From contig JANWLD010000001.1 of assembly GCA_025451045.1 (NCBI GenBank), positions 407,468 through 471,467 of the forward strand: a stretch of 64,000 nucleotides of DNA, read 5' to 3'. The position numbers were made by a program, and so were the translations under genes. The notes under the pieces are model-generated. The model made no database searches, was not told the origin of the DNA, and saw only the letters and a program-made list of their open reading frames with translations. Shown here piece by piece: positions 6,676-56,237 of the stretch. Position 1 is the stretch's first letter. The number at the start of each line of letters is the position of its first letter. The stretch is from Candidatus Saccharimonadales bacterium. Lineage in GTDB: Bacteria > Patescibacteriota > Saccharimonadia > Saccharimonadales > 2-12-FULL-41-12.

Positions 6676-7698
6676 ATGAAGACACGTGTTGCAATCAATG
6701 GTTTTGGCCGCATCGGCCGAAGTGCTTTTAAGATAGCATATGAACGGCCAGACTTGGAGATAGTAGCTATAAATGATCTTTCCGACAGTGCTACTTTGGC
6801 GCATCTTTTGAAGCACGACAGCAATTATGGCAAATACGACAAAGAAGTAAAGTCCGATGAAAACGGTTTGATTGTAAGCGGCAAACATATAAAACTTTTA
6901 AGCGAAAAAGACCCAGCCGCGCTACCTTGGAAAGAGCTGAAGATTGACGTAGTGATTGAATGCACCGGCTTCTTTACCAAAAAAGAGGGAGCGGAACTTC
7001 ATATCAAAGCCGGAGCAAAACGGGTAGTTATATCCGCGCCGACCAAAAGCCCTGATCTTGAAACAATCGTGCTGGGTGCGAATGAAGACAAGCTGGAGTC
7101 TGCAGGAGAGATAATCAGCAATGCCAGCTGTACGACCAATTCGATAGCGATGGTGATGTCGATATTGGACGAAGCGTTTGGCATCGAAAAGGCCATGCTT
7201 ACGACAGTTCACAGCTATACTGCTAGCCAGAAGCTTCAGGATGCCCCGGCCAAGGACTTGCGCGAAGCACGCAATGCGGCTGAGAATATCGTACCAACCA
7301 CCACCGGCGCGGCAATCGCGGTCGGCTTGACTTTACCGCAGTTGCAGGGCAAGTTCGACGGATTAAGCGTCCGGGTACCGACACCGGTAGTATCACTTAG
7401 CGACGTGACTGTGGTACTCAAAAAAGACGCAACCAAAGAGCAAATAAATGATGTTTTCAAAAAAGCCGCTAAAGAGCCGTTCTATCAAGGAATCCTGGGA
7501 GTCAGCGAAGAACCGTTGGTCAGCGGCGATTATATCGGCAATAGCCATTCTGGAATCGTCGACCTGCTTTTGACCAACGTAGTTGGCGGCAATTTGGCAA
7601 AAGTGGTCGTTTGGTACGACAACGAGTGGGGATATTCCAACCGTCTGGTAGAAGTTGTTGCGGACGTCGGACGATTACTGCATAATAGCTCGAAGTGA
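6676..7698 (+). CDS. gap: type I glyceraldehyde-3-phosphate dehydrogenase
   Basis: Start moved from 6613 to ATG 6676 (SD AAGGA at 6666-6670). The protein then begins MKTRVAINGFGRIGR. Catalytic SCTTNS is present. Confidence 0.9.
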   Translation: MKTRVAINGFGRIGRSAFKIAYERPDLEIVAINDLSDSATLAHLLKHDSNYGKYDKEVKSDENGLIVSGKHIKLLSEKDPAALPWKELKIDVVIECTGFFTKKEGAELHIKAGAKRVVISAPTKSPDLETIVLGANEDKLESAGEIISNASCTTNSIAMVMSILDEAFGIEKAMLTTVHSYTASQKLQDAPAKDLREARNAAENIVPTTTGAAIAVGLTLPQLQGKFDGLSVRVPTPVVSLSDVTVVLKKDATKEQINDVFKKAAKEPFYQGILGVSEEPLVSGDYIGNSHSGIVDLLLTNVVGGNLAKVVVWYDNEWGYSNRLVEVVADVGRLLHNSSK

Positions 7699-8183
7699 GA
7701 ATAGCGCTTAGTACTGACCATGCAGGGTTTGAGCAGCTTAAACTGCTCAAAGAATTTTTAATATCCAAAGGCCATGAATCTGTGGATTTTGGACCAAAAG
7801 AATTTGACGCTGAAGACGATTACCCGGACTTTATTTTTCCTGCTGCCGAGGCCGTAGCTTCTGGTGAATGTGAAGCCGGGATTATCATGGGAGGTAGCGG
7901 ACAGGGCGAAGCGATGGCCGCTAACCGTATAAAAGGCGTGCGATGTATGGTTTATTACGGTCCGGCCAAAGCTGTGGGAGCCGTTGATGCTGACGGTAAA
8001 GAATCCGCTGATGAATATGAGATACTGCGACTTTCCAAACAGCACAATAATGCCAATATGATAAGTTTTGCCGCCCGTTTTGTATCCCAGCTTGAAATAG
8101 AAAAAGCCGTAGAAATCTGGTTGAATGAACAGTTCAGCGAAGTCGAACGCCATCAGCGCAGAATAGGAAAACTGGACAAATGA
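7695..8183 (+). CDS. rpiB: ribose-5-phosphate isomerase B
   Basis: RpiB/LacAB family N-terminus MRIALSTDHAGFE...GIIMGGSGQGEAMAANR. The GTG start overlaps the gap stop. Confidence 0.85.
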   Translation: MRIALSTDHAGFEQLKLLKEFLISKGHESVDFGPKEFDAEDDYPDFIFPAAEAVASGECEAGIIMGGSGQGEAMAANRIKGVRCMVYYGPAKAVGAVDADGKESADEYEILRLSKQHNNANMISFAARFVSQLEIEKAVEIWLNEQFSEVERHQRRIGKLDK

Positions 8184-8185
8184 GC

Positions 8186-8247
8186 CCCGTAGTGAGCCTC
8201 CTAGTTGCTTCGCAAAATAACCTAAGTTCTAGGAGGTCTACTACGGG
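8186..8247 (+). repeat. GTAGTGAGC-type palindromic element, copy 1 (MITE-like)
   Basis: Termini are CCCGTAGTGAGC ... GTCTACTACGGG. The 19-position stem has 16 Watson-Crick pairs, 2 G.U pairs and 1 A-C mismatch. Identical ATGAGC flanks it at 8180-8185 and 8248-8253. Confidence 0.75.
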
Positions 8248-8880
8248 ATGAGCATTGTTTGCCCGACAGTCCTGGCTACAACCGAAGAAGAATACAAGGA
8301 GCAGATGGATCGAATAGCGCCATTTGCCGCGCGAGTTCAGATAGACCTTATGGACGGTGATTTCGCCCAGCCTAAGTCAATTGATGTTGATAAAGTCTGG
8401 TGGCCGGAAGACGTAACAGCCGATATCCATATAATGTATCGCCGACCAGGGGAATATCTTGATACGCTTATTAAACTCAAACCAAGCTTGGTTATAATCC
8501 ATGCCGAAGCCGATGTAGACCACAAGTCATTTGCCGAAAAACTACATGTCGAAGCGATTTCTGCCGGTATTTGCCTGCTAGCCGATACGCCAATAAGCCA
8601 AATCAAAGATATTATTGATGAATTTGACCATGTATTGATCTTTGGCGGTACTTTGGGTAGCTTTGGCGGTAATGCCGATTTGGCCCAGCTGGAAAAGGCC
8701 CGTCAGGCCATAGAGCTGAAACCGACTCTTGAAATCGGTTGGGATGGCGGTGTTAACGACCAAATTGCCAAACAGTTGTCGGACGGTGGAATCGACGTGC
8801 TCAACGCAGGCGGTTTTATCCAAAAAGCCGAAGACCCCAAAGCCGCCTACGAAAAGCTATTGCAACTCATTGAACAATAA
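8248..8880 (+). CDS. ribulose-phosphate 3-epimerase family protein (divergent)
   Basis: Pattern PTVL...QIDLMDGDF...DIHIMY...VIIHAEA parallels Rpe PSIL...HvDvMDGhF...DvHLM...H.E. The first metal-binding His is replaced by Gln. Confidence 0.6.
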   Translation: MSIVCPTVLATTEEEYKEQMDRIAPFAARVQIDLMDGDFAQPKSIDVDKVWWPEDVTADIHIMYRRPGEYLDTLIKLKPSLVIIHAEADVDHKSFAEKLHVEAISAGICLLADTPISQIKDIIDEFDHVLIFGGTLGSFGGNADLAQLEKARQAIELKPTLEIGWDGGVNDQIAKQLSDGGIDVLNAGGFIQKAEDPKAAYEKLLQLIEQ

Positions 8881-8925
8881 AATACAATTTAGCTAGATAA
8901 TTAAAGCATAAGCTAAAAGGTAAAA

Positions 8926-9516
8926 ATGAAACTTTATAAAAACCAAAAAGGCTTTGGGGGAATCGAAGCCTTGATAATAGTAGTCATTATAGGGCTGATC
9001 GGAGGAGTTGGATATTATGTTTATAACAGACAGACCTCTAAAAATGAAGAACCACAAACAGCCGCGATAGTAAAAGAAGAAAATCCAAAAACAATAACAA
9101 AAGAGTCTCTCCCAGAACTTGTTGATTACGGAGAAGATGGCATTTCAGTTACTAAAAAATCGGACGCAAAAAAACTTTATGACACAAGCGAGTCGTTTAA
9201 GGCTTTTATAGCCTCCAGAGTTCCTGAAAAAGAAGCTCCCCTGGACCCTACTAAATGTAATGAAAGCCAAGGTTTCTATGTACGAAAAGTATACAAGGAT
9301 AAGTTTGCTATAGGAAATGCCTGCGCTGACAATATTGCCGGTTTTATTATATGGGCAAAAGAGGATGATCAATGGGGAAAGCTAATAGTAAGCTCCGAAC
9401 AACTGTCCTGTGAATTTATTAATAAGCATAATATTCCCGCTAAATTAGACAGTAATCTAGAAGCCTGTTATGTGGAAAAATCAGATGGTGATTTGGTCAA
9501 AAAGAACCTGAATTAA
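8926..9516 (+). CDS. type IV pilin-like (prepilin-type N-terminus) protein
   Basis: Class III signal KG|FGGIEALIIVVIIGLIGGVGYYVY: Gly-Phe cleavage site, Glu at +5 and a hydrophobic helix. Cys pairs occur in the C-terminal part. Confidence 0.7.
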   Translation: MKLYKNQKGFGGIEALIIVVIIGLIGGVGYYVYNRQTSKNEEPQTAAIVKEENPKTITKESLPELVDYGEDGISVTKKSDAKKLYDTSESFKAFIASRVPEKEAPLDPTKCNESQGFYVRKVYKDKFAIGNACADNIAGFIIWAKEDDQWGKLIVSSEQLSCEFINKHNIPAKLDSNLEACYVEKSDGDLVKKNLN

Positions 9517-30342: not shown

Positions 30343-31941
30343 ATGAGCGAAGACGCACGTGCCGACGAAGAGCGCGCAACCCAACGCCGCGCCCAGATAC
30401 TGGGCATGAGTTATACCGATACCTCGGGTTCTGAAAAGCCGCTTTATAAGGAATTGCTGGTCCCCGATGAAATGCGCGAGAACCATTCTATTCCGATTTA
30501 TGCCGATGAACACCATATAAATTTTGGGGTAACGAACACTACTTCCCAGCAGACGATGCAGGAATTGCGCAACCGTTTCTTGGACCAGCGGGTCTCATTC
30601 ACGCTTATTTCCGACACGGGCTTTAAAGATTACATGTTGCTTTATGACCCTCCGAAAAAGATTGAATATCAAGATGTGGAATTATCCAAAGAAGGCGACA
30701 TTGACTTATTTTCAGAGGTCAGTGAAACGCTTGAAAAAGTCCTGGCTGATGACATCTTGGCTTATCTGGTAAAACAGACCTACCAGCTGAAAGGCTCCGA
30801 CATCCACTTGGAGAACCAGAAAGAAGGCGTGCGGGTCAGGATAAGGGTTGATGGCGTACTCCATCCGGTAGCGGCGCTTAGCCATGAGAAATATCATCAG
30901 TTGCTTTCATCTATCGCCATTGCCGCAAATGTATCAACTGCCGACCCCAATCCGCAGACCGGGCATATCAACAACCAGTATAAGCTGGCTACCGGCGAAG
31001 AAGTAACTGTAAACTTGCGTGTCGAGACCGTCCCGACAGTCTATGGCCAAGACGTGGTCATGCGGCTTTTCAACCTGAAGATGGAACTGCTTAATTTGGA
31101 CAAACTGGGGCTTTCCGAGCGTGAAAGAGCTCCGGTTGACGATATCATTACCCACCCCAGCGGTATGGTGCTGGTGGTCGGGCCGACCGGTTCAGGAAAG
31201 ACAACCACGCTTTATTCGCTGATAAATACCTTGAATTCATCAGAGCGCAAGATAATAACCTTGGAAGACCCGGTAGAGTATTTTCTGCCCGGTATCGTAC
31301 AGATTCCGGTAGCCGGCGATCAGGATGCCACTGGCTTTGCTGACCATTTAAGGGCGGTGCTGAGGCTGGACCCGGATGTCGTCATGGTCGGTGAAATCCG
31401 TGATCAAGATACTGCTCGCACAGCGCTTCAGGCCGCTTTGACCGGACATTTAGTACTGTCGACTTTCCACGCTTCATCCGCCGCGGCCGCTTTGACCAGG
31501 ATGCTGGATGCCATCGGCATAAACCCGCTGTTTGCCAGCGCCATGCATCTGGTGATGGCCCAGCGTCTGATTAGAAAACTGGATGACGAAACTAAAGAAG
31601 CGTTCAAGCCGGACAAAGAACTTAAAGACCAGTTAAAAGCCGTAGTCGACACGCTGCCGCCGAATATGAAGAAACCCGATTTAAGTAAATTAACCCTGTA
31701 TCGGGCTAAGCCGAACGCCAAAAACCCCTTTGGCTTCAAAGGCCAGTTAGCTATCCGCGAGCAACTGGTAATGACCCCGGGTGTTCAACAGCTTCTGCGG
31801 TTGCCGCCGAATGAGATAACTACGGATATATTGGAAAAGAAGGCTGTTGAAGACGGAATGTTAACCATGCTTCAAGACGGCGTACTGAAAATAATCAACG
31901 GCGAAACTACTTTAGAAGAAGTTTACCGTGTAGTAAGTTGA
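30343..31941 (+). CDS. pilB: type IV pilus assembly / GspE-family secretion ATPase
   Basis: Walker A GPTGSGKTTT and Walker B/Asp and His boxes (DPDVVMVGEIRD, GHLVLSTFH). Confidence 0.9.
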   Translation: MSEDARADEERATQRRAQILGMSYTDTSGSEKPLYKELLVPDEMRENHSIPIYADEHHINFGVTNTTSQQTMQELRNRFLDQRVSFTLISDTGFKDYMLLYDPPKKIEYQDVELSKEGDIDLFSEVSETLEKVLADDILAYLVKQTYQLKGSDIHLENQKEGVRVRIRVDGVLHPVAALSHEKYHQLLSSIAIAANVSTADPNPQTGHINNQYKLATGEEVTVNLRVETVPTVYGQDVVMRLFNLKMELLNLDKLGLSERERAPVDDIITHPSGMVLVVGPTGSGKTTTLYSLINTLNSSERKIITLEDPVEYFLPGIVQIPVAGDQDATGFADHLRAVLRLDPDVVMVGEIRDQDTARTALQAALTGHLVLSTFHASSAAAALTRMLDAIGINPLFASAMHLVMAQRLIRKLDDETKEAFKPDKELKDQLKAVVDTLPPNMKKPDLSKLTLYRAKPNAKNPFGFKGQLAIREQLVMTPGVQQLLRLPPNEITTDILEKKAVEDGMLTMLQDGVLKIINGETTLEEVYRVVS

Positions 31942-31957
31942 AAACTTTACTACTGCG
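31927..31957 (+). repeat. 31-nt mini-hairpin related to the GTAGT element family, overlapping the pilB stop
   Basis: CGTGTAGTAAGTT-GAA-AACTTTACTACTGCG, flanked by GTTTAC(CG) at 31921-31928 and 31958-31965. Confidence 0.5.
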
Positions 31958-32051
31958 GTTTACCGCGTCGTCAGCTAACCTTCACTTTTCTAACAGATGT
32001 GGTATACTTAAATTTAACTTTCAATAATAAATTAAGGTTATATAGAATCAA

Positions 32052-52873: not shown

Positions 52874-53836
52874 TTTTTGGAAGCGGCGTATCAGTGGCAA
52901 TGACGTTCGGTAAGCCTTGAACCGGGCTTGATTGACGGGCAACTGCCAGGTGCCGCCAAGGGCTATTTCACCTCCGCCAAATTTGCGCTTAAAAGTGCTA
53001 AAACCGCTCCATGGGTGTGACGGCGATGCATCGGGCGGAGCCACGCCGAACAGGTCAAACCATCTCACCTTCCTATCTTTTGCATGTTGCATAGCCTGCC
53101 AGAGCAGGACGGTGCCGGCTTCTAGCTTGCGTGCTTCGGGATACGAACCGGCGTATGCATAATGGGCCACTTTATCATTTTGCAAAATTACTGCACCTGC
53201 TATCGGTTTATTCTCAAAATAAGCCAGTTCAAGCACTGCCGACTTTTGGGGCATCAGCACTTTGGCCTGGGCTTCAAAATATTTCCTGTCGTGAAGATTG
53301 ATTTTTTTTCGGTTTGCTACTTTATCAATCATGTCGGTAAACAGCTTGATATCATCCGGATTAGTACTGCTTTTAAAGCTCAGCCCGCGCCGCGCAGCTC
53401 TATTTATAAGATTGCGAAAAGTCGGCGATAAGGCGCTCCAGCGTTTGGTATCGTCAATTTTCAGGTCATTTACCACGGTATGCGAAGGGTTATAGGATTT
53501 CTCAGCCTGTTTTAATCCTAGCTTTTTTGAGTCGAATTTGAGGTTTCGGCCGAAAGGCTCAACCGTCACCCATGCCAGTCCTGCCTTTTTGGCTTCATCG
53601 GCGATTGTTTTAAGCGCCTTTGGCAAAGCTTTTTTATCGGTCAGAAATGGTCCGTAAGGCGCTAGCCAATAATCTCCCAATTTGGTCTGCTGGCGTATTA
53701 GCAGACAGTGCCAGCCGCTACCCTCTAGCCAAGTAACTTCTTTGCCGAGAGTTTTTTGAAACTCAGCCCATGCTTTGGTTTGGGTAATTGGATAATTATC
53801 CAAAAAGGGGTGGTTACTGGAGTTAAGCATTTCCAT
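52865..53836 (-). CDS. FemAB-family peptidoglycan interpeptide-bridge aminoacyltransferase
   Basis: Its length and sequence pattern (FLQ..WA.F, GAPRF-like C-terminal half) fit the FemAB/FemX family. Confidence 0.7.
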   Translation of the reverse strand: MEMLNSSNHPFLDNYPITQTKAWAEFQKTLGKEVTWLEGSGWHCLLIRQQTKLGDYWLAPYGPFLTDKKALPKALKTIADEAKKAGLAWVTVEPFGRNLKFDSKKLGLKQAEKSYNPSHTVVNDLKIDDTKRWSALSPTFRNLINRAARRGLSFKSSTNPDDIKLFTDMIDKVANRKKINLHDRKYFEAQAKVLMPQKSAVLELAYFENKPIAGAVILQNDKVAHYAYAGSYPEARKLEAGTVLLWQAMQHAKDRKVRWFDLFGVAPPDASPSHPWSGFSTFKRKFGGGEIALGGTWQLPVNQARFKAYRTSLPLIRRFQKLR

Positions 53837-53877
53837 AATTGTAGCAAATACGCTAGAATAGCCTAACCAAACTCTAT

Positions 53878-54135
53878 GGGGATGTGGTGGAATTGGTAGA
53901 CATTTACCTGGTAGTAAAGTTCTGGAGGCGCGGTGGTGGAATTGGTAGACACGCTAGTTTTAGGAACTAGTGCCGCAAGGTGTGAGAGTTCGAGTCTCTC
54001 CCGCGCCACCAAAACTTTTACTACTGGGCGCTAGTCCCAGCACTAAAGCAAAGCTTAGTGCTGGACTTTGCTTAGGAACTAGCGTGAAGGTTAGCTTGGT
54101 GCGATAGCCCAAGCGCTGTCCTTTCATCCCCACCA
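53878..54135 (+). pseudogene. disrupted tRNA-Leu-like gene enclosing the intact tRNA-Leu
   Basis: Acceptor 5' strand plus D-arm lie at 53878-53903. CGCTAGT (54029-54035) and TTAGGAACTAG (54072-54082) are anticodon-arm pieces. CATCCCC+ACCA (54125-54135) is complementary to GGGGATG at the 5' end. No T-arm is present. Confidence 0.45.
53927..54011 (+). tRNA. tRNA-Leu (anticodon UAG), type II, CCA encoded
   Basis: Manual cloverleaf: acceptor GGCGCGG/CCGCGCC, D-arm GTG-GAATTGGTAGA-CAC, anticodon arm CTAGT-TTTAGGA-ACTAG, 13-nt variable arm, T-arm GAGAG-TTCGAGT-CTCTC, then ACCA. Confidence 0.9.
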
Positions 54136-54137
54136 AA

Positions 54138-54167
54138 TTGACATAAGCGGATTAAGTGTGTTATAAT
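54138..54167 (+). promoter_or_regulatory. near-consensus promoter of the hisS/his operon leader
   Basis: TTGACA (54138-54143), an 18-nt spacer ending in TGT, then TATAAT (54162-54167). The predicted TSS coincides with the A of ATG 54174. Confidence 0.65.
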
Positions 54168-54173
54168 AAAATC

Positions 54174-54236
54174 ATGGTTATAAAGCTAACTAATCAGCAT
54201 CATATACATCTATCGCCGGAGCTGTCGGTTAGTTAA
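54174..54236 (+). CDS. candidate his leader peptide MVIKLTNQHHIHLSPELSVS (20 aa, leaderless)
   Basis: ATG lies 7 nt after the -10 box. Three His codons fall within four positions (54198-54209). TAA stop at 54234-54236, followed by a terminator. Confidence 0.55.
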   Translation: MVIKLTNQHHIHLSPELSVS

Positions 54237-54259
54237 CTTTTGTCTTAATAAAAACACAT

Positions 54260-54286
54260 AACGCCGGACACGCTCCGGCGTTTTTT
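54260..54286 (+). terminator. intrinsic terminator (attenuator) in the hisS leader
   Basis: AACGCCGGA-CACGC-TCCGGCGTT followed by TTTTTT. The upstream CGCCGGAGC (54214-54222) can alternatively pair with the 3' arm GCTCCGGCG (54272-54280). Confidence 0.75.
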
Positions 54287-54331
54287 ATAGATTTAATAAA
54301 TATTAGAATATACTTTAACGAAAGGAAAGTT

Positions 54332-55624
54332 ATGAAAAAGGGAGTTGAACCCGCAATTTTGAAAGGAACCAGGGATTTTCTGCCCGCTGATATGGCGCAG
54401 AGGAATGAGGTTTTGGCCAAAATAAAAAACACTTTTGAAAAATTTGGTTACCAACAGATAGAAACACCTATCTTAAGCTATGCCGAAACGATATTAGGCA
54501 AAGAAAAAGAGAACAGTCAGAAGATGGCTTATTCGTTCAAAGATTATGGCGAGCGCGATATTGCCTTGCCGTTTGACTTGACCATGCCTTTTTCCCGGTT
54601 TGTTGCGGCTAACTGGCGGGATCTGCCGATACCGTTCAAGCGCTTCCAAATCCAGCGGGTATGGCGCGCCGAACGGCCGCAACGCGGGCGTCTGCGTGAA
54701 TTTTACCAATGCGACGTAGATATCATCGGTTCAAACGAGCTGGTCTGCGAGGCTGAAATTGCCAAATTGATTACTCAGGTTTTCGATGAGCTAAAAATCA
54801 AAGATATAAAAATACGCGTAAATTCGCGGAAACTACTAAATGAAATATTGACTGGGTTCGGTGTCGAAAAAGATAACCTGATACCAGCTATACGGCTGAT
54901 AGATAAACTGGACAAAATCGACAACACGGCGGTAGTAGAAGGGCTAAAGAAGCTAGGTATAAAAAACGCCGCCGAGATTATCGGGGTACTCAAAACGGAT
55001 AAAGACAACCAAGCCACCCTGAAACAGCTTGAAGCATACGATACGACGGACTTGCAGGAATTTTTGCGTTTGAGCCGTGAATTCGGAGTTGATGAAACGC
55101 GATTGGTACTTGATCCCGGCCTGGCACGAGGGCTGGATTATTACACCGGAATAATCTTTGAAGTTGTTTCAAGCGATGAAAGCCTTGGTACTATCTGCGC
55201 CGGCGGCCGTTATGATGATTTGTCGGCGATGTTCTCAAGCAAGGAATTCTCCGGTATCGGCGTATCCTTTGGCTTCGAGCGAATCATGCTGTTTATGCAG
55301 GAAAACGGGCTTATTGCCGACGGCAAGCCAAGTTCCAGAGTATTGATAACGGTTTTTGACGAAGGTTCGCTGGATGGGTCGATAAAAATCTACAAATCAC
55401 TGCTCAAAGCCAGTGTTCCGGCGGAGATTTATCTGGATGAAACCAACCTCTCCAAACAGTTTAAATATGCTGATAAAAAGAATATACCGTTTGTCGTAGT
55501 GCAAGGCCCGGATGAGCTTCGCGACAACGAGGTGATTGTACGAAGAATGAGTAATGGCAACCAAAAGAAAATTCCTGCCAGCCAGCTTGCTTCCTACATA
55601 GCAGGTTATTATGAAGCGAACTAA
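54332..55624 (+). CDS. hisS: histidine--tRNA ligase
   Basis: Class II motif 2 (RVWRAERPQRGRLREFYQCDVDIIG), GGRYDDL, motif 3 (GVSFGFERI) and a complete C-terminal anticodon-binding domain. Confidence 0.85.
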   Translation: MKKGVEPAILKGTRDFLPADMAQRNEVLAKIKNTFEKFGYQQIETPILSYAETILGKEKENSQKMAYSFKDYGERDIALPFDLTMPFSRFVAANWRDLPIPFKRFQIQRVWRAERPQRGRLREFYQCDVDIIGSNELVCEAEIAKLITQVFDELKIKDIKIRVNSRKLLNEILTGFGVEKDNLIPAIRLIDKLDKIDNTAVVEGLKKLGIKNAAEIIGVLKTDKDNQATLKQLEAYDTTDLQEFLRLSREFGVDETRLVLDPGLARGLDYYTGIIFEVVSSDESLGTICAGGRYDDLSAMFSSKEFSGIGVSFGFERIMLFMQENGLIADGKPSSRVLITVFDEGSLDGSIKIYKSLLKASVPAEIYLDETNLSKQFKYADKKNIPFVVVQGPDELRDNEVIVRRMSNGNQKKIPASQLASYIAGYYEAN

Positions 55625-56237
55625 TATCCGAATAGCCATCCAAAAATCCGGCCGGTTGAGAGCAAAGAGCGAGAAGCTGTTAAATGAATGGGGCATTGAC
55701 TGTGAAGCCGATAATAAAGGCCGGTTGGTCATTCCCTGCAACGGAGGCGAATTTGAGATTTTGTTTGTACGTTATGGCGATATTCCGGAGTATGTAGCCA
55801 GCGGGGTGGCTGATTTCGGTATCGTCGGCCAGAATATCTTGTATGAAGACCGGTTTAATGTTGGCGTGGTCAAGCAGTTGGGCTTTGGCGAATGCCGTTT
55901 GATTGTTGCCGCTCCAAAGCGTTCATCGATAAAAACGGTGGCGGATTTGGAAGGCGAACGCATAGCGACATCTTACCCGAACAGCTTGCGAAAATTCCTG
56001 AAAAAAGAGCGTTTGGGCGCGACTATCATCAAAATCCGCGGCGGAGTGGAAGCCGCTCCGGCCATAGGCTTGGCTGACGCCGTGTGCGACCTTACCCAGA
56101 CGGGTAAGACTTTGGACGCCAACGGACTGAAAATAATCGCTACAGTGCTGGAATCCCAGGCTGTATTGATTGAATCCAAATTCTTATCGGCCAAAGCCGA
56201 AAAGTTCAAAGAAAAAGTGTTACAGGCCGCATCATGA
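55611..56237 (+). CDS. hisG: ATP phosphoribosyltransferase, short form
   Basis: 208-aa HisG catalytic core without the C-terminal regulatory domain. The ATG overlaps the hisS 3' end by 14 nt. Confidence 0.9.
   Translation: MKRTNIRIAIQKSGRLRAKSEKLLNEWGIDCEADNKGRLVIPCNGGEFEILFVRYGDIPEYVASGVADFGIVGQNILYEDRFNVGVVKQLGFGECRLIVAAPKRSSIKTVADLEGERIATSYPNSLRKFLKKERLGATIIKIRGGVEAAPAIGLADAVCDLTQTGKTLDANGLKIIATVLESQAVLIESKFLSAKAEKFKEKVLQAAS

Follow-up and report, generated by a model that had tools for sequence, protein, structure and literature searches.

What becomes of a tRNA gene once a second tRNA gene has come to lie inside it? The question is raised by positions 53878 to 54135 of a 64-kb stretch of DNA from a Candidatus Saccharimonadales bacterium (contig JANWLD010000001.1), which is called the window throughout this text. 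An initial annotation had described an intact tRNA-Leu(UAG) gene inside a split older tRNA-Leu gene and had regarded the older gene as a decayed wreck. The arrangement itself was borne out, and a working tRNA-Leu nested in a tRNA-derived shell is confirmed. The explanation favored here, with a probability of roughly 0.6, is that the working tRNA-Leu has been replaced repeatedly within a tRNA-derived RNA shell that is kept by selection.

The inner and the outer tRNA-Leu gene

The sole tRNA call at the locus is the inner tRNA-Leu(UAG), with 58.6 bits (ARAGORN; Rfam RF00005). The relaxed and intron modes of ARAGORN still call this gene only, and Rfam at E<=10 gives nothing beyond it at the locus. 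The inner gene has the acceptor stem GGCGCGG/CCGCGCC, the T arm GAGAG-TTCGAGT-CTCTC, and an encoded CCA. The repeated pieces that had been noticed around it were found as described. A 19-nt direct repeat (53884-53902 and 53933-53951) is 100% identical, and the inner anticodon arm recurs exactly in CGCTAGT (54029-54035) and TTAGGAACTAG (54072-54082). An outer closing stem is formed by TGGGGATG (53877-53884), which pairs with CATCCCCA (54125-54132), and is followed by CCA. Inverted arms flank the inner tRNA, and a hairpin of 10 perfect pairs lies in a 35-nt insert between the anticodon-arm halves. A 276-nt stretch of the locus folds with z = -5.2, far beyond chance, and its minimum free energy (MFE) structure contains the inner cloverleaf, the clasp helix formed by the arms, and the outer stem.

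The outer gene was identified through relatives, whose loci are designated by L numbers. These were reached through protein homologs and contig look-ups. A peptide-pattern scan of genome contigs with the FemAB-like protein yielded no relatives, and a 17-mer scan of genome contigs gave 76 loci, most of which were discarded as chance matches (L033, L068, and L074 were inspected and are unrelated). In the relatives found via the FemAB-like protein (65-75% identity), the corresponding position, between the FemAB-like/RsmD genes and the his genes, is occupied by an intact tRNA-Leu(UAG). In L003 and L004 this uninterrupted gene reads GGGGATGTGGTGGAATTGGTAGACACGCTAGTCTTAGGAACTAGTGCCGCAAGGCGTGAAGGTTCAAGTCCTTTCATCCCCACCA. 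The five outer pieces of the window, 72 nt in total, have 0 mismatches to it and 13 to the inner tRNA. The 13 differences fall in the acceptor stem, the T stem, and position 32, which is C in the outer gene and T in the inner gene. Since the outer pieces match the gene of L003 and L004 and not the inner gene, they belong to the resident gene and are no simple local tandem duplicate. The outer gene is orthologous to the resident tRNA-Leu(UAG) of the relatives, with which it shares sequence, promoter block, and neighbors. Thus, the outer gene is the lineage's original tRNA-Leu(UAG), of the GGGGATG allele, and the inner gene is a different allele (GGCGCGG) placed between A24 and C25 of the old gene.

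The features of the locus are collected in Table 1. The block cat ttccataattgtagcaaatacgctagaata of the promoter-like site is identical 5' of the intact tRNA-Leu in L003. A separate promoter for the inner tRNA (TTGGTA-16-TAAAGT, 53893-53920) was considered; it matches at 8/12 positions, was not flagged by the scan, and is a weak possibility.

Table 1. Positions of the tRNA-derived features, in window coordinates or, for type-B domains, in the named relative
Feature	Position	Strand	Basis or remark
Promoter-like site TTTCCA-18-TAGAAT	53830..53859	+	9/12 match; 5' of the outer 5' end; putative function
Outer 5' stump: acceptor GGGGATG, TG, D arm to A24	53878..53902	+	25/25 identical to L003/L004 tRNA
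Leader of inner tRNA with left clasp arm CCTGGTAGTAAAGTT (53907-53921)	53903..53926	+	inverted repeats I1, I19; MFE helix
Inner working tRNA-Leu(UAG)	53927..54011	+	ARAGORN, Rfam; 85 nt
Trailer of inner tRNA with right clasp arm AACTTTTACTACTGGG (54013-54028)	54012..54028	+	inverted repeat, MFE fold
Outer C25-G26, anticodon-stem 5' strand, and C32 (CGCTAGTC)	54029..54036	+	8/8 identical to L003/L004
35-nt insert in outer anticodon loop: hairpin 54037-54064, then ACTTTGC	54037..54071	+	flagged terminator-like
Outer anticodon loop (UAG) and stem 3' strand, TTAGGAACTAG plus C	54072..54083	+	11/11 identical to ortholog and inner tRNA
Type-A module: T stem GAAGG (54086-90) and CCTTT (54120-24), hairpin 54094-54114, CATCCCC (54125-31), ACCA (54132-35)	54084..54135	+	R1 model, alignment
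Type-B domain, L001	56-170	-	
Type-B domain, L039	4310-4425	+	
Type-B domain, L105	118-232	+	
Type-B domain, L106	57-172	-	

The outer gene differs from its ortholog by four changes. A 127-nt insertion after A24 holds the inner tRNA, and a 35-nt hairpin, which folds at -16.9 kcal/mol, follows C32 in the anticodon loop. The 10-nt variable arm TGCCGCAAGG, which both the ortholog and the inner tRNA have, is deleted. Lastly, the T loop is replaced by TTA, a 21-nt hairpin, and GCTGT. All four outer stems are intact. The T arm had been thought lost; its stem is in place, and its loop holds a 6+2-bp hairpin. The insertion between D arm and anticodon arm had been put down to a 125-nt cassette with GTAGTA arms. 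The interruption by a tRNA stands, at 127 nt, and a mobile GTAGTA-armed cassette is not supported. GTAGTAA and TTACTAC, taken as a core shared with the end of pilB, number 5 and 6 in the window, where 5.7 are expected, and form no repeat family. In addition, the bracketing arms are absent from L038.

The outer gene could conceivably still yield a functional tRNA, either by splicing out three unconventional introns or as a split, two-piece molecule joined by its outer stems, with excision of the inner tRNA as part of its maturation. When the three inserts are removed in silico, a 76-nt cloverleaf is left, which ARAGORN at its default threshold accepts as tRNA-Leu(tag). The outer gene has all stems, the UAG anticodon loop, A73, and CCA, and the outer stem closes the MFE fold. 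However, the insert-free T loop is TTAGCTGT, which has 8 nt and lacks C56 and A58, and the variable region has 3 nt instead of the long arm of class II. For these reasons, the outer gene could not be a normal tRNA even if it were spliced. As it stands, it is not detected as a canonical tRNA by ARAGORN, including the intron and relaxed modes, or by Rfam at E<=10, and it has neither a 7-nt T loop with T54-Psi55-C56 and A58 nor a long variable arm. There is also no group I core and no other Rfam match, the type-B loci described below cannot restore U55, and L001 and L106 have lost the outer acceptor pairing. Bacteria are not known to have a mechanism for such an excision. A maturing outer tRNA is therefore a very improbable explanation.

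Archaea possess multi-intron, split, and permuted tRNA genes with bulge-helix-bulge introns. The window resembles these in that its inserts lie at non-canonical positions (the D/anticodon junction, 32/33, and the T loop) and that the pieces can reassemble into a cloverleaf. It differs in its bacterial host, in a reassembled T loop and variable region that are not tRNA-like, and in that one insert is a whole tRNA. The known tRNA introns of Patescibacteria are group I introns in the anticodon loop (PMC13011429); the phylum and an interruption of the anticodon loop are shared. Those introns exceed about 200 nt, have a catalytic core, and occur in the anticodon loop only, whereas the window has a 35-nt hairpin in the anticodon loop, a 21-nt hairpin, and a 127-nt tRNA cassette, with no Rfam intron match at E<=10.

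Type-A and type-B derivatives of the T arm

The 3' piece of the outer gene had been described as decayed. It proved instead to be a copy of a conserved module, here called type A, which occurs on its own in relatives and carries compensatory changes. The module has 52 nt; the window copy, with the inserted hairpin GCTTGG..CCAAGC, scores 74.5 bits with the covariance model R1. Type-A copies were recovered by a scan for GCGCTGTCCTTTCATCC and then a gapped pattern. They come from genomes (L038, L039, and L071), from metagenomes (L086 and L087), from L003 and L008, and later from L105. R1 finds eight loci (the window, L003, L008, L038, L039, L071, L086, and L087) at 58.9-80.1 bits, and L105 carries a ninth copy that was read by eye. 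The consensus is GAAGGTTA, the hairpin, (A)GCGCTGTCCTTTCATCC.., and usually ACCA. According to the covariance model, each of these Saccharibacteria tRNA-Leu loci has exactly one copy, and the rest of the 64-kb window has none. Low-scoring extra matches to the model are unrelated.

In L003, L008, L039, L071, L086, L087, and L105 the type-A module stands alone 3' of an intact tRNA-Leu, and in L038 it flanks another nested tRNA. In most loci, tRNA-Leu is followed by a terminator-like hairpin, then by an inverted T-arm copy (CTTGAAsCTTCA), by GAGCrAAGCGArCGG, and by the type-A module. RsmD identity to the window is 46-76% among the type-A genomes where it is measurable, and the sequences and terminator hairpins that flank the module cannot be aligned between loci. 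Among the eight sequences the T stem is invariant, and three of the eight hairpin pairs have changed on both sides. Covariation in the hairpin is 0.187 compared with 0.073 in shuffles, a value that 0/500 shuffles reached. The type-A module is a conserved, structured, tRNA-Leu-derived element beside tRNA-Leu across Saccharibacteria. A search for a conserved 5' partner, or for a consensus fold of the inverted T-arm copy plus the module on either strand, found nothing beyond the hairpin. A small minus-strand open reading frame (ORF) in the module (MKGQR...) was rejected because its stop positions are not conserved.

The acceptor strand of the module is CATCCCC in most loci, CATCCGC in L086 and L087, and CTCGCCC in L105. 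The tRNA acceptor of L086 and L087 is GCGGATG/CATCCGC, which matches their module strand. Each of these 3' strands corresponds to a real tRNA-Leu allele.

The inverted T-arm copy was also noted in its own right. CTTGAAsCTTCA is the reverse complement of the 5' half plus loop of the tRNA-Leu T arm. It was seen in L003, L008, L039 (4147 and 4581), L071, L086, L087, L105, L106, L001, and L006, and is absent from the window. In most relatives it sits 5' of the type-A module or of the working tRNA, and L039 has two copies, 434 nt apart, of a 30-nt block that contains it.

A second and larger derivative, type B, is present in four relatives. It is a domain of about 90 nt in which three hairpins, closed by the T stem as a four-way junction, replace the T loop of a tRNA-Leu-like sequence. 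Its 40 pairs are 95.6% paired in the four sequences, and 14/40 have compensatory double changes. Each of the five measures is above that of 500/500 shuffles, and slid controls reach <=3 such pairs. The G-U pairs lie on the tRNA-sense strand. The type-B covariance model scores 114.6-128.1 bits in the four loci and has no match in the window, and no Rfam family matches the domain. Type B is thus a candidate new structured RNA. Judging from the covariation, at least the T-arm halves of these sequences appear to be kept by selection on structure and not to be random wrecks.

There is a substantial chance, if one somewhat below even, that the two types belong to an undescribed Saccharibacteria family of tRNA-Leu-derived RNAs, in which the T loop has become the type-A hairpin or type B and which is selected for a function of its own. 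The outer tRNA of the window would then be a reduced member of the family and no pseudogene. Candidate roles are an RNA released by RNase P/RNase Z, a decoy for tRNA-Leu factors, or a scaffold for precursor folding and processing. Several tRNA-like RNAs are handled by tRNA enzymes, among them tmRNA (including two-piece tmRNA), mascRNA/MALAT1, and mitochondrial tRNA punctuation. The shell shares with these RNAs an acceptor-like stem, a T-like arm, and a CCA end in a longer transcript, which RNase P/RNase Z could possibly cut. It differs from them in that the T loop is replaced. There is no tmRNA call by ARAGORN or Rfam, a tag reading frame is missing, and the outer stem carries G3-C70 where tmRNA would have G3-U70. 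Besides tmRNA and group I introns, GOLLD/ROOL and all other Rfam families were without a match. In the literature searched, neither nested tRNA-Leu genes nor tRNA-like RNAs with an expanded T loop are described for the phylum.

Age of the nest and probable replacement of the working gene

The age of the nesting can be read from L105, whose HisS is 78% identical to that of the window. The contig starts inside the tRNA, and its first 29 nt are the 3' end of the inner tRNA (29/29). There follow a homologous flank, CGCTAG, a hairpin insert, TTAGGAACTAG, a variable arm, a T stem with type B, CATCCCCACCA, a terminator, an inverted T-arm copy, and a type-A module. The anticodon-loop insert has another sequence at the same position and a similar apex (GCCAAGC vs GCAAAGC in the window). 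Since the same inner allele is followed by the old anticodon arm, the nest predates the split between the window and L105. The nesting is old. Between the two, the tRNA-like pieces agree at 18/19 positions and type A at about 46/53, compared with 12/20 in the flank (the trailer in the window) and 22/43 in the insert, so that the spacers are 50-60% identical. Only this right-hand flank, which is partly similar, is readable in L105; the left one falls outside the contig. The layout of the window resembles that of L105 after a single deletion of the variable arm through the start of type A. The presumed deletion junction reads ACTAG followed directly by CGTGAAGGTTAGC.

These comparisons bear on the reading closest to that of the initial annotation, in which an arm-tRNA-arm cassette jumped recently into the old gene and the outer structure is the leftover of a decaying pseudogene. 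The old gene is indeed interrupted and does not score as a tRNA, inverted arms flank the inner tRNA, and 0 substitutions in the 72 kept nt would fit a very recent event. However, the nest is shared with L105, where the spacers have diverged to 50-60% identity, and the outer pieces are conserved above that spacer rate, which refutes neutral decay. The 3' piece is conserved, with compensatory changes, over RsmD identities of 46-76%. The inserts are all hairpins in loops or junctions that leave every stem intact, and GTAGTAA occurs at chance frequency. A neutral wreck therefore appears improbable.

Other relatives show further layouts. L038 (RsmD 50%) has GGGGATGTGGTG, a different inner tRNA (GCCGGGA allele), and then type A; its outer stem closes the fold, and its nested tRNA has no flanking inverted repeat. 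The order in L039 is a 5' fragment, tRNA-Leu(CAG), the type-A module, and a type-B 3' part. Its 523 nt fold with z = -8.2, closed by GGGGAUG/CAUCCCC. Thus, GGGGATG...CATCCCC encloses a tRNA-Leu in both L038 and L039, and in L001 and L106 the shell lies upstream of the working tRNA. Six working acceptor alleles were found among the relatives: GGGGATG, GCGGATG, GGGCGAG, GCGCGAG, GGCGCGG, and GCCGGGA.

Six independent metagenome contigs (L001, L002, L005, L009, L105, and L106) end within D-arm or T-arm sequences of tRNA-Leu. Layered structures are probably under-reported, since assemblers break at this repeat-rich locus. Such breaks would also suit an assembly artefact in which two strain alleles were collapsed into a chimeric nested order. 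That explanation is scarcely credible, because the independent assemblies L038, L039, and L105 show a nested or layered order with unique junctions, the window is part of a 538-kb contig, and the junctions carry unique hairpins and not simple repeats.

Gene content beside the tRNA varies among the relatives. In L088, a gene for a phage-type large serine integrase (phrog_95, 4e-72; 7570-9189) adjoins tRNA-Leu(UAG). It is flanked by inverted repeats of about 110 nt (7290-7400 and 8985-9095), one of which runs into the 3' end of the tRNA, and a DDE transposase lies between the integrase element and hisS. Among the accessory ORFs beside the tRNA in the relatives (209 aa, 168/194 aa, and small ones), no informative Pfam or PHROG match was obtained apart from the serine integrase. 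This is the only integrase found, and L088 has no type-A module.

The fragments could accordingly be scars at the level of DNA, that is, attL/attR-type sites or traces of recurrent exchange, integrase-mediated or homologous, at the T arm and D arm, which would persist through continued use by elements and not through any RNA function. Partial tRNA genes are reportedly present at the attL/attR of integrative elements, as Williams is said to have described in 2002. The window shares with such sites tRNA 3' fragments in direct orientation beside a complete tRNA, and it belongs to a hot spot with an integrase in L088 and an insertion sequence nearby. The variable gene content, the inverted T-arm copies beside the type-A module, and an acceptor strand that always equals a real allele would suit this reading too, and tRNA fragments left by integration are common at att sites (PMC9897764). 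Against it, no element or integrase lies between tRNA and module in nine loci, where the two are separated by only about 110 nt. Within about 5 kb on each side of the window locus are TyrRS, RecG, RsmD, FemAB-like, HisS-like, and hisGHAF genes and no integrase element. There are 5' fragments too, and the T-loop insert is structured and shows compensatory evolution, unlike att-site fragments. One module copy is present per locus and none is dispersed elsewhere, and the G-U pairs in the type-B covariation lie on the tRNA-sense strand, which points to RNA. The module is also absent from viral contigs and phage records. DNA-level scars are thus unlikely, if somewhat less so than a neutral wreck.

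The viral searches covered the inner allele as well. Viral contigs contain neither the type-A module nor the inner allele, and a generic tRNA-Leu core pattern found in them only 16 unrelated phage tRNAs. BLAST against phage GenBank records gave generic tRNA-Leu matches, with none to the shell or the inner allele. One viral contig, L094, has an odd stretch of about 120 nt, about 20-140 nt 3' of a tRNA-Leu on the minus strand, that ends in the T-arm-like GAAGGTGCAAGTCCTTC.

The preferred reading, replacement within a selected shell, can be set out as follows. The working gene would have been replaced by an inserted foreign allele, either through an integrative element that carried its own tRNA or through uptake and illegitimate recombination. 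Because no element remains at the window locus, the second route is equally open. A deletion may have joined the type-A module to the old anticodon arm, with loss of variable arm, old T arm, and spacer. Transcription from the old promoter would cover both the tRNA and the shell, the latter as leader and trailer; the shell would fold on itself, and RNase P and 3' trimming would release the 85-nt tRNA. Selection would act on the RNA structure of type A and of the larger type B. Replacement appears to be recurrent in relatives, with which the six acceptor alleles, the nested and tandem layouts, and the one serine integrase at the site are consistent. The best guess for the module is a cis-acting element for folding, processing, or stability of the tRNA-Leu transcript.

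A number of points weigh against replacement within a selected shell. No integrase, transposase, or target-site duplication is present near the window locus, so that the mechanism of insertion is one that we infer. The samples are small, with eight type-A and four type-B sequences. In the type-A hairpin, 9/10 non-pairs are C.A or A.C on the tRNA-sense strand and G.U on the other, which makes the strand of action of the module ambiguous. The module is missing from L004/L005 and L088 and is therefore dispensable, and L008 keeps it without a complementary 5' strand. A terminator-like hairpin lies between the tRNA and type A in most loci and makes co-transcription uncertain. No significant structure was seen in the 5' halves of the shells (z = -1.0, -2.0, and +0.2), and L001 and L106 have lost the outer closing stem.

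The closest documented process is the tRNA-dependent lysogeny of mycobacteriophages, in which integration destroys a host tRNA and the element supplies one of matching isotype (Guerrero-Bustamante and Hatfull, 2024; PMC10865867). The window agrees with it in that an old host tRNA is interrupted and the inserted DNA holds a same-isotype tRNA of another allele. It differs in that no prophage or integrase is present at the window locus and that the replacement lies inside the old gene and not kilobases away. The arrangement is also old here, its flanking fragments are conserved, and we infer its mechanism. The feature is a variant of tRNA gene disruption with replacement that leaves tRNA fragments.

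On the preferred reading, the locus would represent a mode of tRNA gene turnover in which an essential, single-copy tRNA gene is replaced in place, repeatedly, by foreign alleles. The nested layers left by replacement could then be read as its history. At least two T-loop-expanded derivatives, conserved with clear covariation, bear the signature of a structured RNA class that is missing from Rfam. Spare non-coding DNA is unusual in the tiny genomes of this phylum. For annotation, it matters that tRNA finders see the inner gene only and that assemblies break at the locus. If the modules are functional, they would make it practicable to study how a tRNA gene is converted into another kind of RNA.

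Neighboring features

Near the end of pilB, a hairpin (31927-31953, GTAGTAAGTT-gaa-AACTTTACTAC) that resembles the clasp arms spans the pilB stop codon. Its left arm is coding and encodes the conserved PilB C-terminus, EEVYRVVS followed by the stop. Beside it, 31973-31985 is a 13-nt match to type A (the reverse complement of 54084-54096). The pilB-end similarities, of 13 nt and 11 nt, are within chance (E = 0.26-4).

The genes around the locus are, in order, TyrRS, RecG, RsmD, a divergent FemAB-family gene, the tRNA region, a HisRS-like gene, and hisG/H/A/F. Positions 54138-54287 likely contain a histidine leader-peptide attenuator ahead of the hisS-like/hisG operon. A perfect promoter, TTGACA-18-TATAAT (54138-54167), is followed by a leader ORF (54174-54236) that encodes MVIKLTNQHHIHLSPELSVS and a stop. 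The predicted antiterminator CGCCGGAGC (54214-54222) would compete with a terminator at 54260-54287. No Rfam His_leader match was obtained for this leader. It is conserved in L038 (MCEIINQLHLHIPPERLG), L105 (MVKQLTDQHHTHLLPERVG), and L106 (MVKQLINQHHTHLLPELVG), in each case ending in a stop.

Further downstream (54332-56237), a full-length HisRS-like gene (430 aa, including an anticodon-binding domain) overlaps with the beginning of a short-form hisG (208 aa). HisG of the short form ordinarily depends on HisZ; the HisRS-like protein may therefore serve as HisZ, as HisRS, or as both.

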